DNA from: Alphaproteobacteria bacterium
Lineage (GTDB): Bacteria > Pseudomonadota > Alphaproteobacteria > Micropepsales > Micropepsaceae
Direction: 5' to 3'
DNA: 64,000 nucleotides
Assembly (NCBI GenBank): GCA_019245415.1
Contig: JAFARO010000016.1
Coordinates: 31,389 to 95,388, forward strand
Shown here: positions 3,554-44,134 of the stretch, piece by piece
How the letters are laid out: the number at the start of each line of letters is the position of its first letter
How positions within the stretch are numbered: position 1 is the stretch's first letter
The notes under the pieces: model-generated
Database searches by the model: none
What the model was told of the DNA's origin: nothing
The model's input: only the letters and a program-made list of their open reading frames with translations
Translations under genes and position numbers: made by a program

Positions 3554-3665
3554 GGTGTAAGAGGCACCCAAAGCACGAACGCCCCAGGGGGCGCACCTGC
3601 GCTGCCTGGGGGCGATCCCCCGCGCCGGGCGAGGGACCGGAAGTCCTTTAGGGCTTCCGGAAGCG
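3554..3665 (-). ncRNA. Putative ffh leader RNA (alphaproteobacterial ffh 5'UTR motif)
   Basis: Between a sigma70-like promoter and ffh; hairpins CCGGAAG/CTTCCGG, GCCCCCAGG/CCTGGGGCG, GGGTG/CACCC; match to the known ffh leader is from recollection, not a covariance-model search. Confidence 0.55.
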
Positions 3666-38689: not shown

Positions 38690-38806
38690 CTCTCCCTCGC
38701 CCCCGCGCAGCGGGGGAGAGGGTCGGGGTGAGGGGGCGGTCAGGTCCGAGCGCGCTGTCGGCGCCCCCTCACCCTGGCCCTCTCCCCCAAAGTTGGGGGA
38801 GAGGGA
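38690..38806. repeat. CCCTCTCCC...GGGAGAGGG palindromic element
   Basis: Double hairpin CCCTCGCCCCCGC/GCGGGGGAGAGGG and CCCTCTCCCCCAA/TTGGGGGAGAGGG. Confidence 0.85.
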
Positions 38807-38885
38807 ATGCTTTGTCCTCCGCATCCAGTTTCCCGGAACCAAATCTCCTCCTACTCTGCCTCATCGCCATCGAGAGGAACAGATC

Positions 38886-39782
38886 ATGTACGACCTGATG
38901 TTCAAGGACCGGCTCCTGCAAGGCAAGCGCATCCTGGTCACCGGCGGCGGCACCGGGTTGGGCGAAGTCATGGCGGAGGCCTACGCGCAGCTCGGCGCCA
39001 CCGTCTATATCTGCGGAAGGCGGGCGGGCGTGGCGGAAGAGACCGCCAAGCGTATTGGCGATGCGACTGGCTCGAAGGTGGTTGGCCTGGGCTGCGACAT
39101 CCGCGTGGCCGAAGCAGTCGACGACATGATCGCGCGCATCTGGAACGATGGCGGCGCGCTCACCGGGCTCGTCAACAACGCGGCCGGCAACTTCATCAGC
39201 CGCACCAAGGACCTGACGCCGAAGGGCTTCAACGCGATCAGCGATATCGTCTTCCGCGGAAGCTTCTATGTGACGCTCGCCTGCGGCAAGCGCTGGATCG
39301 AAGAGCAGCGCAAAGCCAGCGTGATCTCCATCCTCACCACCTGGATCTGGAACGGCGGGCCGTTCACCGTGCCGTCGGCGATGTCGAAGGCGGGGTTGAA
39401 CATCATGACCAAGTCGCTGGCGACCGAATGGGGCCCCAACGGCATCCGCCTGAACGCGATCGCGCCGGGACCGTTCCCGACCAAGGGCGCGTGGGAGCGT
39501 CTCAGTCCCCAGGCCGCCAGCGGCAATCGCGGCGACTCTGCCGAGCGCATCCCGATGGGGCGCAACGGCGAGATGGTGGAATTGGCGAACCTCGCCGTGT
39601 TCCTGATGGCCGATGGCTGCGAATACCTGACCGGCCAGACGATCGCCATTGACGGCGCCGGTCATTTGGGAGGAACCGGCAACTTTTCCGCTCTCTCTCG
39701 ACTCGACGATGCGCAATGGGAGGCGATCGGGGCGCAGATTCGCGCCGCCAATCAAAAGGACAAGACGCAGCGCACGGCATGA
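38886..39782 (+). CDS. SDR oxidoreductase, 2,4-dienoyl-CoA reductase-like
   Basis: TGGGTGLG, NNAAGNF, PSAMSKAG, IAPGPFPT. Confidence 0.88.
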   Translation: MYDLMFKDRLLQGKRILVTGGGTGLGEVMAEAYAQLGATVYICGRRAGVAEETAKRIGDATGSKVVGLGCDIRVAEAVDDMIARIWNDGGALTGLVNNAAGNFISRTKDLTPKGFNAISDIVFRGSFYVTLACGKRWIEEQRKASVISILTTWIWNGGPFTVPSAMSKAGLNIMTKSLATEWGPNGIRLNAIAPGPFPTKGAWERLSPQAASGNRGDSAERIPMGRNGEMVELANLAVFLMADGCEYLTGQTIAIDGAGHLGGTGNFSALSRLDDAQWEAIGAQIRAANQKDKTQRTA

Positions 39783-39809
39783 ACCGCTCTTAACCGCACT
39801 TATTATTTG

Positions 39810-40090
39810 ACTTGGGACGCGACCGGGCGGATCATCGCTTCAGCGTCGGCCGGCTGCGTGTGCGGCCTTCGCCCGATGCAACGGCACAAAGGGAGGTTCC
39901 GCATGGAAGACACTCCGCCGGGCATAGAACCCGGGCTTCGCTCGCGGAGCCAACGGAGAACGATGTTCTCCGCCGCCGACAATTGAATCCGAATGCAAGC
40001 GGACGAAGGTCCGCGCAAACCCTTAGTGGGCAGGAAAGCTCTCGCTTTCCAAACGGCCCCGCCGCGGACGACGCGGCGGGGTTCGTGTTT
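39810..40090 (+). ncRNA. Candidate structured ncRNA or non-autonomous mobile-element remnant
   Basis: Several perfect stems (39955-39971, 39999-40014, 40033-40050), SD GGGAGG + ATG 27-aa mini-ORF 39903-39986, terminal 10-bp stem. Confidence 0.5.
40057..40090 (+). terminator. Intrinsic terminator-like hairpin
   Basis: CCCCGCCGCG-GACGA-CGCGGCGGGG followed by TTCGTGTTTG. Confidence 0.65.
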
Positions 40091-40100
40091 GTGCGCGGAA

Positions 40101-40277
40101 TGTCATCCCCGGCCGAGCGAAACGAAGTGGAGCGAGGGGAAGGGGACCCAGGTTGAGACGTTTCCTCAGTCTCAAAAAGCAAATTTGGTTCAAAGCAATC
40201 TATTCAAGTACTCACGAGCGTTACGACCTGGGTCCCCTTCCCTCGGCGCGCCGTCGCGCGCCTCGCCGGGGATGACA
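40101..40277. repeat. MITE-like element with long imperfect terminal inverted repeats
   Basis: TGTCATCCCCGGC...GAGGGGAAGGGGACCCAGGT / ACCTGGGTCCCCTTCCCTC...GCCGGGGATGACA around an AT-rich core. Confidence 0.8.
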
Positions 40278-40287
40278 GCGGAGCAAG

Positions 40288-42207
40288 TTACTCCACCACG
40301 AAATCCTTCGGATCGGGCTTGATCGTGGCGTTCCAGTAATCGACCAGCTTGAACGGCCAGTTCTGGCTGACGCGGCCGAGCGTATTCTTGTACCAGCTCT
40401 TGGCATTGGGTACGCCCCAGGCCATTTTCGCGTTCTCGGCGTCGACGCGCGCATTGAACGCGTCGTGCACGTCGGCCTTGACCTCCATCGTCCGCGCCCC
40501 GCTCTCGGCGAGCAGCTTCAGGCAGTTGACGATGTAGCGCACGCTCGCTTCGGTGAAGAAGATGATGGAGCCGTTGACGACGATGTTGGTGTTGGGGCCG
40601 TAGATCACGAAGAAATTGGGGAAGCCGGGCACCGTCATGCCGAGATAGGCGCGCGCATCGCCCTTCCAGCGCTCATGCAGCTCGACCCCGTCCCGGCCGA
40701 CGATTTTGTAGGTGCGCAGGAAATCGCTCGCGTGAAATCCGGTGCCATAGACGATCACGTCCACTTCGTGCTCGCCGCCGTCCTTGGTGCGGATGCCTTT
40801 GGGCGTGATCTCGTCGATGCCCGTGGTGATGAGATCGACGTTCGGCCGCGCCAGCGCCGCGAGATAGACGCCGTTGTCGCGCACCGAGCGCTTGGAGCCG
40901 AAGGGATAGTCGGGCACCACCTTGTCGACGAGATCGGGGCGGCCGGGAAGCTGCTCCTTGATCTTCTCGATCAGCATGCCGCGCAGCATCTCGTTCATCG
41001 GCGAGACGGCGCGCGAGGTGTCGTTCCAGCTTGGGTCGACCGCCACCGCGTCGAGGATGCCGTCGGTCAAGGTCCAGAACAGCCAGAAGCGATACCACTT
41101 GCCGTACGTCGGCACATGCTCGAGCAGCCACTTTTTTCCTTCGGCGACCTTGTCGTGATAATTGGGCGTGGGCCCGAGCCACGGCGCGGAGCGCTGGAAG
41201 ACGAGAAGCTTGCCGACCTGCGGCGCGATCTCGGGGATGACCTGGAAGGCGGTGGCGCCGGTACCGATCACGGCGACACGCTTGCCCTTCAGATCGACAT
41301 CGTGACGCCATCGCGCGGTATGGAAGGCCGGACCTTTGAAGCTGCCGATGCCCTTGATGTCGGGCATCTTGGGCTGGTTGAGCTGACCGACCGCACTGAT
41401 GACGGCGCTCGCTTCGAGTGTTTCTTCCCTGCCGTTCTTGTCGCGGATGAGCACCTTCCAGTGGGACGTTTTCCCGTCGAATGCCGCCTCCACCACCTGG
41501 CTTTCGAAGCGGATGTGCTGGCGCAGATCGTACTTCTCGGCGATGCGGCGGAAATAGTCGTGGAGCACGTCCTGCGTCGAGAAGTGATACGGAAAGGCGT
41601 GATTGGGCTCGAAGGAATACGAATACATGTGGTTGGGATTGTCGACGCGGCAGCCAGGATAGGCGTTCTCGTACCAGGTGCCGCCGACGTCGGGATTCTT
41701 CTCGATGATGGTGAAGGGCACGCCCGCCTGACTGAGGCGGATGGCGGTGAGCAGGCCGGAGAGTCCGGCGCCGACGATCACTACGTTCATCTTCGCCGCG
41801 GCCTGTTTCAGCTTCGGCGCATCCCATTTGACTTCGCGGCTGTCCTCGACCGCGATGCCGAGTTCCTCCTTGAGAAACGGCACGTAGCGCTCGGGAATGT
41901 CGGCGCCGGCGATGAAGTCCATCATTTTGCGGATGGTCGCGGCGTCAGGCGGCGGCGGCAAAGGTTTGCCATCGAGATAGTTCAGGATCGCCGCCTTGGC
42001 CTTATCGCGCACCCATTGCCGCTTCTCTTCGGAAAATCCGCCCTGGCCGTCGCCGAAGAAATCATAGACCGGCTTCATCTCGGGCGTGAGATGGCTCGCG
42101 TCGCCGGTCAGATGCACCAGCGCCATCATCAGGCTGGGGATGTGGGCATCCTTCAGCGCCCACTCGACTTCGGCGGAACGGTCCTGCGGCTTGGCGGCGG
42201 CACTCAT
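40288..42207 (-). CDS. Type I Baeyer-Villiger monooxygenase with N-terminal extension (HAPMO-like)
   Basis: GAGLSG, GGTWYENAYPGCRVD, FKGPAFHTARW fingerprint, GTGATA; N-terminal AHIPSLMMALVHLTGD. Confidence 0.9.
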   Translation of the reverse strand: MSAAAKPQDRSAEVEWALKDAHIPSLMMALVHLTGDASHLTPEMKPVYDFFGDGQGGFSEEKRQWVRDKAKAAILNYLDGKPLPPPPDAATIRKMMDFIAGADIPERYVPFLKEELGIAVEDSREVKWDAPKLKQAAAKMNVVIVGAGLSGLLTAIRLSQAGVPFTIIEKNPDVGGTWYENAYPGCRVDNPNHMYSYSFEPNHAFPYHFSTQDVLHDYFRRIAEKYDLRQHIRFESQVVEAAFDGKTSHWKVLIRDKNGREETLEASAVISAVGQLNQPKMPDIKGIGSFKGPAFHTARWRHDVDLKGKRVAVIGTGATAFQVIPEIAPQVGKLLVFQRSAPWLGPTPNYHDKVAEGKKWLLEHVPTYGKWYRFWLFWTLTDGILDAVAVDPSWNDTSRAVSPMNEMLRGMLIEKIKEQLPGRPDLVDKVVPDYPFGSKRSVRDNGVYLAALARPNVDLITTGIDEITPKGIRTKDGGEHEVDVIVYGTGFHASDFLRTYKIVGRDGVELHERWKGDARAYLGMTVPGFPNFFVIYGPNTNIVVNGSIIFFTEASVRYIVNCLKLLAESGARTMEVKADVHDAFNARVDAENAKMAWGVPNAKSWYKNTLGRVSQNWPFKLVDYWNATIKPDPKDFVVE

Positions 42208-42303: not shown

Positions 42304-43407
42304 TCATCGCGGTTTCCAGGCGAGCGGCGCGAAGCTGACGTAAGGAGGCAGCGCGAAATCGGGCCGCGCCGGCTCGTTGCGGAACCCGGCTGCCGGGCCG
42401 ATGTGGCGGTTGCCGGTGGCGTCCTTCAGCACCATGCCGCGTGCGGCCGTATGCGGATCGTCGAAGGCATCCTTCAACGTCTGGACCGGGGCCCAGCACA
42501 GATCGAGCGGCGCGAGGAATTCTTCCCATTCGGCGCGAGTCTTGCCGCGGAACGCCGCGGTGAAGAATTCGATCAGCGGCTGCTGGGCGGGGCCGGGCTC
42601 GGAAGCGGCCAAATCGACCAGGTCCGGCCGGCCCAGCGTGGCGAGCAGGCTTTGGCAGAACTTTCGCTCGTTGCCGGCCAGCGCGATCAGGCCGCCGTCC
42701 TTCGTCGCATAGAGGCGGTTCATCGCCTGACCGCCATAGTTGCGCATGTAAGCCGGCACCGGCGCTTCGTCCCTGCCCAGCACGCCGCCCGAGATATTCG
42801 GCGTCCAAGCCAGCAGCGCGTCGAACATCGCGACATCGATATAATCGCCCTTGCCGGTGCGGACACGGGCCAGCAGCGCCAGCAGGATGGCGCTGAGCGC
42901 CGTGAGCGATGCCGCCATGTCGGCGGCGACGAGATTGGGCATCGCCGGTTTCACCAGATCGACGGTTCCCGCCAGGGCCTGCACGGCAAGATCGTGCGCG
43001 GGCTTGTCGCGCAGGGGACCGTCCTGCCCGAACGCCGAGATCGCGCAATAGACGATGCCGGGATTGCGCGCGGCGACGGTGTCGTAGTCGATGCCCAGCC
43101 GCTTGACCACGCCGGGGCGGAACGCCTCGACGATCACGTCGGCCTCGTCGGCGAGCGCCAGGAAGAATTCGCGCTGCGCGGGGTTTTTCAGATCGAGCGC
43201 GGTGGCGCGCTTGCCGCGCGCGATGTTGCGGAACCACACGCTGGTGCCGTCCCGGGCCTTCACGCCCATGGCGCGCGTGGGCTCGCCGGTGCCGTTGGCA
43301 GGCTCGACCATGATCACGTCGGCACCGTGATCGGCCATGGTCATGGTCAGATGGGGACCTGGCAGGAACTGGGACAAATCCAGGACGCGGATGCCGGAAA
43401 GCTTCAT
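42304..43407 (-). CDS. CaiB/BaiF family III CoA-transferase
   Basis: LSGIRVLDLSQFLPGP, ARGKRATALDLK, EAFRPG, SAFGQDGP, HDL. Confidence 0.9.
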   Translation of the reverse strand: MKLSGIRVLDLSQFLPGPHLTMTMADHGADVIMVEPANGTGEPTRAMGVKARDGTSVWFRNIARGKRATALDLKNPAQREFFLALADEADVIVEAFRPGVVKRLGIDYDTVAARNPGIVYCAISAFGQDGPLRDKPAHDLAVQALAGTVDLVKPAMPNLVAADMAASLTALSAILLALLARVRTGKGDYIDVAMFDALLAWTPNISGGVLGRDEAPVPAYMRNYGGQAMNRLYATKDGGLIALAGNERKFCQSLLATLGRPDLVDLAASEPGPAQQPLIEFFTAAFRGKTRAEWEEFLAPLDLCWAPVQTLKDAFDDPHTAARGMVLKDATGNRHIGPAAGFRNEPARPDFALPPYVSFAPLAWKPR

Positions 43408-43444
43408 TTGCGGGCCCATGCGGAATCGTGCGAGCGAAGCTGCC

Positions 43445-44134
43445 ATGAAAAGCGCCGATTGGGACAGGCTGGCGAGGGATTTCGAGGCCGAGACCTGCGA
43501 CATCACGCGCGAAGAGAGCGCCGATACGGTGGCGCGCTTCGTCGCCGCGGTGCCGTTGCCCGCGAAGCCGGTGCTCGTCGATCTGGGCTGCGGCATCGGC
43601 AGCTTCATCGCCCGCTTCGGCATGCGCTTCCACGCGATCTACGGCGTCGAGTTCGCGCCGCGCATCATCGCCCGCGCGCGCGCCCGCTGCGGCGACGAGG
43701 TGAACTGGCTGGCGAGCGATATTCCGTGGGCGGCGAAGACCATCGGCCGCGTGGCGCACCTCACCGTGTGCATGAACGTCATCACCCAGGCCACGGCGGC
43801 GGCGCGCGGCCGGCTGTGGCGCAGCCTGGCGGACGTGACCAAGATGCGCGGCCATGCCCTTGTCGTCGTGCCTTCGCTCGAGTCCGAGGAAATGGTGGTC
43901 GCGCTTTCGAGACAGGAGCCGGAATGGCGCAAGGGCGGTCTCGTGCGCCGCGATGGCGTGTGGCAGAAGCATTTCCGGCGCGAGGAGCTGGCCGATGTTC
44001 TCGCAAGCCACGGCTTCCGCGTGACGCGGATCGCGAAGGCTCATTATCCCTGGAGCATCGAGGGCCTGCGCGAAACAAAAGGCCGGCGGGCAAACCGTCC
44101 CTGGGATTGGATTGCGTTGGCGCGGAAGACGTAA
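43445..44134 (+). CDS. Class I SAM-dependent methyltransferase
   Basis: LVDLGCGIG motif I, GVEFA motif II. Confidence 0.8.
   Translation: MKSADWDRLARDFEAETCDITREESADTVARFVAAVPLPAKPVLVDLGCGIGSFIARFGMRFHAIYGVEFAPRIIARARARCGDEVNWLASDIPWAAKTIGRVAHLTVCMNVITQATAAARGRLWRSLADVTKMRGHALVVVPSLESEEMVVALSRQEPEWRKGGLVRRDGVWQKHFRREELADVLASHGFRVTRIAKAHYPWSIEGLRETKGRRANRPWDWIALARKT

Follow-up and report, generated by a model that had tools for sequence, protein, structure and literature searches.

Here we describe a small genetic element from the alphaproteobacterial family Micropepsaceae, found in a stretch of 64,000 nucleotides (nt) (assembly GCA_019245415.1, contig JAFARO010000016.1, positions 31,389 to 95,388; this whole stretch is referred to as the window here), where an intergenic gap of 505 nt between a short-chain dehydrogenase (SDR) gene and an FMO-like monooxygenase gene holds the element in its entirety. 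The element represents an undescribed, conserved family of alphaproteobacterial small genes. Judged from its sequence, it is an independent transcription unit, predicted to give an RNA of ∼250 nt between its own σ70-type promoter and an intrinsic terminator. We lean toward reading this RNA as a dual-function or ribosome-pause-sensing small RNA (sRNA), in which a translated mini-open reading frame (mini-ORF) is combined with covarying hairpins. The narrower proposal, that it serves as a stand-alone ribosome-pause sensor of EF-P activity, prolyl-tRNA supply, or Mg2+ with a trans-acting 3' domain as its output, is tentative, and we regard it as doubtful. The parts of the element, with hairpins numbered H1 to H5 and SD standing for the Shine-Dalgarno sequence, are as follows.

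39807-39835, + strand: predicted promoter, with −35 box TTGACT (39807-12), a 17-nt spacer ending in GGGCG, and −10 box GATCAT (39830-35)
39842-39890, + strand: predicted 5' untranslated region (5' UTR), holding a GC-rich hairpin and, ∼15 nt ahead of the SD, a GCAAC motif
39891-39916, + strand: H1, the SD/AUG hairpin, with SD GGGAGG at 39891-96 and AUG at 39903-05, where the loop meets the 3' arm
39903-39986, + strand: mini-ORF of 27 codons plus a stop codon (39984-39986), encoding MEDTPPGIEPGLRSRSQRRTMFSAADN, which begins MEDTPPGI
39915-39920, + strand: Pro-Pro codons of the mini-ORF
39918-39933, + strand: H2, a weak hairpin (CCGG/loop/CCGG) taking up the 13 nt between Pro-Pro and H3
39934-39951, + strand: H3 (GGCUUCG/CUCG/CGGAGCC), inside the mini-ORF
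39954-39972, + strand: H4 (CGGAGAAC / GAU / GUUCUCCG)
39973-39998, + strand: single-stranded segment between H4 and H5, C-rich and then A/U-rich, with consensus GCCGCCC-ACAAUYGAA
39999-40014, + strand: H5 (GCGGAC/GAAG/GUCCGC)
40020-40050, + strand: variable 3' hairpins (CCC/GGG at 40020-30 and GGAAAGC/GCUUUCC at 40033-50)
40055-40093, + strand: predicted intrinsic terminator, with a 12-pair GC-rich stem (40055-40083) and the U-rich tail UUCGUGUUUGUG

Several of these parts had been pointed out in an earlier note on this DNA. Direct reading of the sequence recovers the SD, the ATG at 39903, and the 27-codon ORF that it listed, as well as its three perfect stems (39954-39972, 39999-40014, and 40033-40050), and the proposed pairing of the SD and ATG corresponds to a hairpin built from GGAG/CUCC and UUCC/GGAA. 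A terminator scan likewise found the terminator, with its stem at 40055-40083. The TATTAT noted at 39801 is present, but it precedes the −35 box and is not the −10 element. The note had offered a stand-alone sRNA or small ORF as its fallback to an insertion sequence remnant, and this is the explanation borne out by the conserved transcription unit, the covarying hairpins, and the coding signatures described below. Its proposed checks included covariation among homologues, which turned out to be strong in H3, H4, and H5, and comparison with Rfam, where the element matches no known RNA family. Specifically, a search of 39783-40095 against Rfam 15 gave no match at gathering thresholds and only chance-level matches up to an E value of 10; RF02471 (Ms_IGR-5) was not matched in the permissive scan of the region. 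A literature search for a described equivalent found none.

The mini-ORF and the position of its Pro-Pro codons

All 81 distinct close homologues carry an SD, an AUG, and a peptide start of the form M-[E/D/K]-x-[T/S/A]-P-P. Their mini-ORFs range from ∼10 to 50 codons with variable tails, and it is only the start, roughly M-E-x-T-P-P-G-I with acidic residues common at positions 2 and 3, that is conserved: amino acid conservation ends by residue 8 to 13, and downstream, through H3 and H4, all three frames are used among homologues. Within the conserved start, tree parsimony counts for codon positions 1, 2, and 3 gave 1, 1, and 7 changes in codon 4, 0, 0, and 17 in codon 5, and 0, 0, and 13 in codon 6, that is, 2 changes at the first two positions together versus 37 at the third. 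Column entropies agree in 20 divergent copies that had been found by a covariance model and not by the sequence pattern.

The placement of the start codon points the same way. The loop 5' of the AUG has gained one or two bases in five lineages, with the AU always kept. From the AUG to the Pro-Pro codons the distance is 12 nt in 80 of the close copies and 15 nt in one, and in distant copies it is 6, 9, or 12 nt and never out of frame, giving starts such as MTPPD, MEPPS/T, MEPPGI, MDTPPG, and MHETPPG. The four C's of the Pro-Pro codons (CCNCCN) are the only invariant columns in a diverse alignment of 37 sequences. These comparisons show that the apparent coding signatures are confined to the first six to eight codons, with Pro-Pro as their invariant core, and we consider it likely that the mini-ORF is translated.

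The Pro-Pro codons also keep a fixed position relative to the structure that follows. The spacer between them and H3 varies in sequence and shows no insertion or deletion in the 37 diverse sequences. With H3 located independently by a stem search in 89 copies, the spacer measured 12 to 14 nt in 76 of them and exactly 13 nt in 59. The spacing from Pro-Pro to H3 is therefore shown, at the level of sequence comparison, to be held whatever the distance from the AUG (6 to 15 nt).

These same data bear on an alternative to which we assign a low probability, namely, that the RNA is a purely noncoding sRNA whose SD-AUG hairpin and CUCC-N-CCGG stretch are kept as RNA, as a structural module, a docking site for the ribosome or a protein, or a base-pairing seed, with the frame being incidental. 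Such an RNA would account for the prediction of H1 in every foldable homologue and the covariation of its inner stem in distant relatives, for variable third codon positions that are linker or wobble-tolerant pairing positions, and for a peptide that is not conserved past residue 8 and is continued in any of three frames through H3 and H4. What it leaves unaccounted for is an AUG that stays invariant though the surrounding loop changes in length and sequence, with proper SD-to-AUG spacing being kept, and length variants between AUG and CCNCC that are all multiples of three, in four length classes and several lineages. Moreover, changes of ACU to ACG, ACC, or ACA weaken the pairing of H1 yet keep the threonine.

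RNA structure and signals of transcription

The + strand of the element folds with −144.8 kcal/mol (z = −5.2), a value that none of 100 dinucleotide shuffles reached. To assess conservation of the fold, the five hairpins were written as six helices and scored on a MAFFT alignment of 51 sequences made from sequence only. Paired cells amounted to 88.9%, versus 79.8% in column shuffles and at most 51% in controls with slid partners, and there were 164 cells with double changes versus 54 in shuffles, none of 500 shuffles scoring as high. RNAalifold recovered H3, H4, and H5 independently. Compensatory double changes occur in 6 of the 8 pairs of H3 (88% of cells paired), in all 7 pairs of H4, and in 5 of the 6 pairs of H5 (96% of cells paired); in H2, pairing holds in 73% of cells, with a double change in a single pair. 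The alignments thereby show the RNA as a string of predicted independent hairpins, three of which (H3, H4, and H5) have been maintained through compensatory changes. As to the loops, that of H3 is 3 to more than 18 nt long, that of H4 usually reads UGA...GAAA or UUGAAAC in relatives, and H5 loops are mostly 4 to 6 nt, many with a GNRA-like core. Between H4 and H5, the GCCGCCC-ACAAUYGAA columns are nearly invariant in the 51 sequences; the window version of the ACAAUYGAA part is ACAAUUGAA at 39979-39987, which holds the UGA stop codon of the ORF, and we regard this segment as a candidate seed or protein-binding site. Toward the 3' end, relatives carry one to three hairpins of differing sequence at the position corresponding to 40020-40050.

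In H1, GGAG (39892-95) pairs with CUCC (39913-16) and UUCC (39897-900) pairs with GGAA (39905-08). The hairpin is predicted in 80 of 80 foldable homologues, at −4.8 to −10.6 kcal/mol. Its inner stem is invariant in close relatives, so that no covariation signal is available there; in distant copies it is swapped by compensating pairs, with UUUC/GAAA in L153, CUCC/GGAG in L138, AUGC/GCAU in L159, and CAUGC/GCAUG in L161. In these distant variants of H1, the AUG keeps its place where the loop meets the 3' arm.

A consensus scan of 39600-40400 found a single σ70-like promoter, where 0.1 would be expected from shuffles. The arrangement TTGAC(A/T)-N17-GAnnAT is exact in 39 of the 79 homologues with enough upstream sequence, and in most of these 39, GGGCG or GGGAG ends the spacer and a T-rich stretch follows the −10 box; the same arrangement precedes the distant copies L159 to L161. 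We infer a transcription start near 39842. The resulting 5' UTR would be ∼50 nt long in the window copy versus 95 to 175 nt in most relatives, and upstream alignments and folds differ in both length and sequence among subgroups. At the other end, the terminator scan returned one site in the gap, 40055-40083 on the + strand, and in most homologues whose extract reaches this far, including distant ones, this position aligns with a GC-rich stem and a U tail.

Upstream of the promoter, 15 of the 79 homologues (L113, L116, L126, L084, and L153, for example) carry the palindrome TCCGTnnACGGA (TCCGT-NN-ACGGA) ∼12 nt before the −35 box. Its center lies ∼55 to 60 nt upstream of the predicted start, where class I activator sites are located, and it resembles a GntR-type operator; it is probably the binding site of a regulator. 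The window copy is without this palindrome, the SDR stop codon being just 24 nt away from the −35 box.

A further alternative, on a par in our estimate with the noncoding one and thus unlikely, is an ordinary small-protein gene, in which a peptide of 10 to 50 residues would be the effector through its MExTPPG start and the hairpins would just stabilize the mRNA. The coding signatures speak for it as they do for the dual-function or pause-sensing sRNA that we favor, as does the possession of a promoter and terminator of its own, and very small functional peptides are known, e.g., the 15-residue SpfP (PMC8916003). Only ∼6 to 8 residues are conserved, however, while the remainder varies freely in length, sequence, and frame. 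The compensatory changes of H3 to H5 and the conserved ACAAUYGAA exceed what a stabilizing tail would need, and the fixed distance from Pro-Pro to H3 is left without an explanation.

Distribution, inheritance, and gene context

A first DNA search among 40 relatives returned matches of ∼50 nt centered on the SD, the AUG, and the first codons. We then extended the survey with an exact-pattern scan of 185,579 species genomes, which gave ∼60 loci with the same downstream architecture, nearly all labeled as Rhizomicrobium or uncultured Alphaproteobacteria; pattern matches in other phyla sit in coding sequence and are without this architecture. A covariance model built from 51 sequences was searched against 301 genomes of the order, and at the class level it was used together with a shorter core model of 68 positions (the E values of these models are rough owing to a short calibration). 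The element was found in 151 of the 301 genomes, which fall into 2 of the 8 genera, Rhizomicrobium and one sister genus, and it is nearly always present in a single copy per genome. The class-level searches returned convincing copies in at least 8 other alphaproteobacterial families. One weak match, L169, is without an AUG and is probably false or decayed.

Two copies each were seen in genomes G112, G129, G199, G022, G209, G225, G253, G263, G271, and G278. The second copies inspected are of a different subtype, with starts MEVTPPEI, METTPPDI, or MEETPPGIEPGSP and a long 5' UTR, and most of them carry an insertion in H4. Since they belong to different subtypes, the family has diverged paralogues.

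The genes that adjoin the element in the window, and a repeat directly behind it, are the following.

SDR gene, ending at 39782, + strand: 5' neighbor, convergent with the FMO-like gene
40096-40282: dispersed long inverted repeat of 187 nt directly after the sRNA terminator, with a fold of −96 kcal/mol
40288-42207, − strand: FMO-like monooxygenase gene, 3' neighbor of the element
42304-43623: CoA-transferase gene, beyond the FMO-like gene

At ∼30 loci, in about as many species, the element lies directly 3' of the same SDR gene and co-oriented with it, with an Lhr-type helicase gene adjoining, and at these SDR/Lhr loci a family III CoA-transferase gene is often convergent downstream. This syntenic site in ∼30 species, together with the nearly constant single copy in 151 genomes, leads us to regard the element, on comparative grounds, as a vertically inherited gene and not a mobile element. 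The earlier note had taken the layout for an IS110-family relic whose transposase is gone and whose bridge-RNA-like ends remain. The likeness is a superficial one of layout alone, a structured RNA flanking an SD and a few codons, and the findings speak against it. The 313-nt block is single copy in its own 3.58-Mb genome; the PF01548 (DEDD/IS110) profile gave 0 matches in the whole genome, with control genomes positive; and the element is flanked by the SDR and FMO-like genes, with no DEDD/Transposase_20 gene. Its position is syntenic in the ∼30 species, one copy per genome is the rule across the 151 genomes, its promoter and coding signatures are conserved, and no Rfam family is matched. The IS110 relic is refuted as far as sequence can show, and we leave it next to no probability.

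Outside the ∼30 loci, the neighborhood changes. A second subtype group has an alanine dehydrogenase gene upstream instead of the SDR, Lhr, and CoA-transferase genes, and the neighbors of distant relatives, named by eye as HflX, MscS, or PdxJ, have nothing in common. No functional link emerged from gene neighborhood across the main group, the second group, and the distant relatives. Because neighborhoods differ and the downstream gene is frequently convergent, we take the element to be a gene in its own right and not a leader. The layout of SD, short ORF, hairpins, and terminator does resemble that of an attenuator, and a cis-acting role, as an attenuator of a downstream gene or through antisense interference with a convergent one, would fit the few subgroup loci where a co-oriented gene follows, namely, a UPF0016/GDT1-like gene in L005 and L100 and a putative copper chaperone (named by eye) in L040 and L091. 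The downstream gene nonetheless differs among loci and is convergent in the window and many relatives, and no antiterminator alternative appeared when the ORF region was held single-stranded, leaving such a role very improbable.

Some further observations concern the surroundings. In most related species the CoA-transferase gene comes directly after the sRNA with no FMO gene between, and the FMO gene of the window, which is common to L050, L060, and L041, appears to be an insertion specific to its lineage. The divergent genes for the Lhr-type helicase (− strand, start at 38842) and the SDR (+ strand, TTG at 38793) overlap by 50 nt in their longest ORFs (38793-38842), and at least one of the two start codons has probably been called too far upstream. 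Among the distant homologues, the sRNA of L157, labeled Rhodospirillales bacterium in the copy L056, lies ∼180 nt downstream of, and co-oriented with, an HflX-like gene (named by eye, a single case). The inverted repeat at 40096-40282 gave 70 BLAST matches genome-wide, to its arms of ∼55 nt or to the whole unit, and is a separate dispersed family of MITE/REP-like type. Rfam matches to microRNA models of plants and animals are spurious, as this repeat causes them. Across the whole window, just one Rfam match reaches its gathering score, that to the ffh sRNA (RF01793, 52.7 bits, 3574-3626, − strand).

Other candidates were tried and rejected. An ...AADN* ending had brought to mind the coding piece of a transfer-messenger RNA (tmRNA); ARAGORN found no tRNA or tmRNA in the window, and the two-piece alpha_tmRNA of this genome, recognized by its Rfam model, lies on a different contig (G000:C15:34199-34583, 235 bits). 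A CsrA sponge was considered since GGA motifs occur at the SD and AUG and within 5' UTR loops of some subgroups; CsrA (PF02599) was not found in the genome, with controls positive. Reading by eye for a programmed frameshift site found no slippery heptamer.

A possible role in sensing ribosome pauses

If the mini-ORF is translated, its purpose may be the act of translation and not the peptide. Adjacent prolines followed by G, D, E, or a similar residue make up the classic EF-P-dependent pause, and the family start M-E-(D/E)-T-P-P-(G/D/E/A) would fit this hard-to-translate class. The leading edge of a bacterial ribosome lies ∼15 to 17 nt 3' of the first base in the P site. From this footprint size and the 13-nt spacer we infer that a ribosome would just reach the foot of H3 when the second Pro codon occupies its P site. 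In the mechanism that we propose, H1 would gate the start codon by burying the SD and AUG; a ribosome that has initiated would pause once the second Pro codon has entered the P site and its leading edge has come up to H3, for a time that depends on EF-P activity, prolyl-tRNA supply, or Mg2+; and its occupancy would set the stability, processing, or accessibility of the 3' domain, made up of H4, the ACAAUYGAA segment, and H5. This domain could then act in trans by base pairing or protein binding. The element would thus follow the logic of a leader peptide without having a gene to lead.

Several observations weigh against this mechanism or against the evidence for translation on which it draws. 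When the stretch covered by the ribosome was held unpaired in 10 representatives, H4, H5, and the terminator were unchanged, and no conserved alternative fold appeared. No complement of at least 16 nt to the RNA was found in the genome, all matches being at chance level, and predicted duplexes with the 5' regions of the SDR, Lhr, FMO, and CoA-transferase genes had energies within background. The footprint argument uses textbook dimensions and not data from these organisms. Residue 3 is acidic in just about three-quarters of the copies. In the Thr codon and the second Pro codon, the third base takes part in the pairing of H1 and H2, and in the first Pro codon it is the unpaired linker that joins these hairpins, so that part of the three-base periodicity could come from structure; the in-frame length variants and the invariant AUG, as far as the alignments tell, are not explained by RNA structure. 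Finally, about half of the genomes of the order are without the element, which is thus dispensable.

With regard to targets, an antisense or long-seed regulator was rejected for lack of a genomic complement beyond chance, and regulation of neighboring genes was rejected since the neighbors are no better partners than random windows.

Among described systems, the closest in logic is MgtL, the leader peptide of mgtA, an enterobacterial Mg2+ sensor, in which acidic residues and proline near the N terminus pause or destabilize ribosomes (PMC11282234, PMC6460261, PMC12856214). MgtL carries a destabilizing EPDP motif and shows EttA dependence (PMC11282234) as well as EF-P dependence (PMC6460261), and its pausing is used to sense Mg2+ (PMC11282234, PMC6460261, PMC12856214). 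Both ORFs are very short, have acidic and proline residues at the N terminus, and are embedded in structured RNA, and in MgtL the signal is the act of translating. MgtL, however, is part of the 5' leader of its target gene and uses alternative folds and Rho, whereas the element has no conserved downstream gene and no alternative fold and ends in an intrinsic terminator of its own. We claim no sequence homology, and the Mg sensor of Rfam was not matched. With leader-peptide attenuators more generally (MgtL, trp, and his type), the element shares an ORF with hard-to-translate codons, its Pro-Pro being invariant in 37 sequences, but it is not in the 5' leader of a conserved gene and no mutually exclusive folds were found.

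sRNAs that also encode peptides of 15 to 30 residues are well established (PMC12612679, PMC8916003, PMC8915982, PMC8672173). As in Spot 42/SpfP, AzuCR, VcdRP, and SgrS/SgrT, the element appears to be a stand-alone RNA of ∼100 to 300 nt with its own promoter and terminator, in which a short frame, probably translated, accompanies a conserved noncoding structure. The known peptides, in contrast, are conserved over their length and have a protein partner, and their RNAs have a defined seed and targets, while the element conserves just ∼6 to 8 codons, is of unrelated sequence, and comes from other bacteria. To the IS110 bridge (guide) RNA it is similar in being a structured, multihairpin noncoding RNA beside an SD; it differs in having no recombinase gene, no mobility, and no repeated copies, and in being syntenic and vertically inherited.

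The family occurs in roughly half of the genomes sampled from a lineage widespread in soil and peat, and it extends to at least 8 further families of Alphaproteobacteria. Its anatomy is unusually informative for an orphan RNA, with a start codon that appears locked in a covarying hairpin and Pro-Pro as the sole invariant of the mini-ORF. Should the pause-sensor proposal prove wrong, the family would still be a new and well-defined candidate for inclusion in Rfam and for work on small proteins and dual-function RNAs. If it is true, translation-sensing ORFs would occur outside the leaders of controlled genes as well and could drive an sRNA that stands alone, and the element would be a natural, compact reporter of EF-P or proline-dependent elongation.

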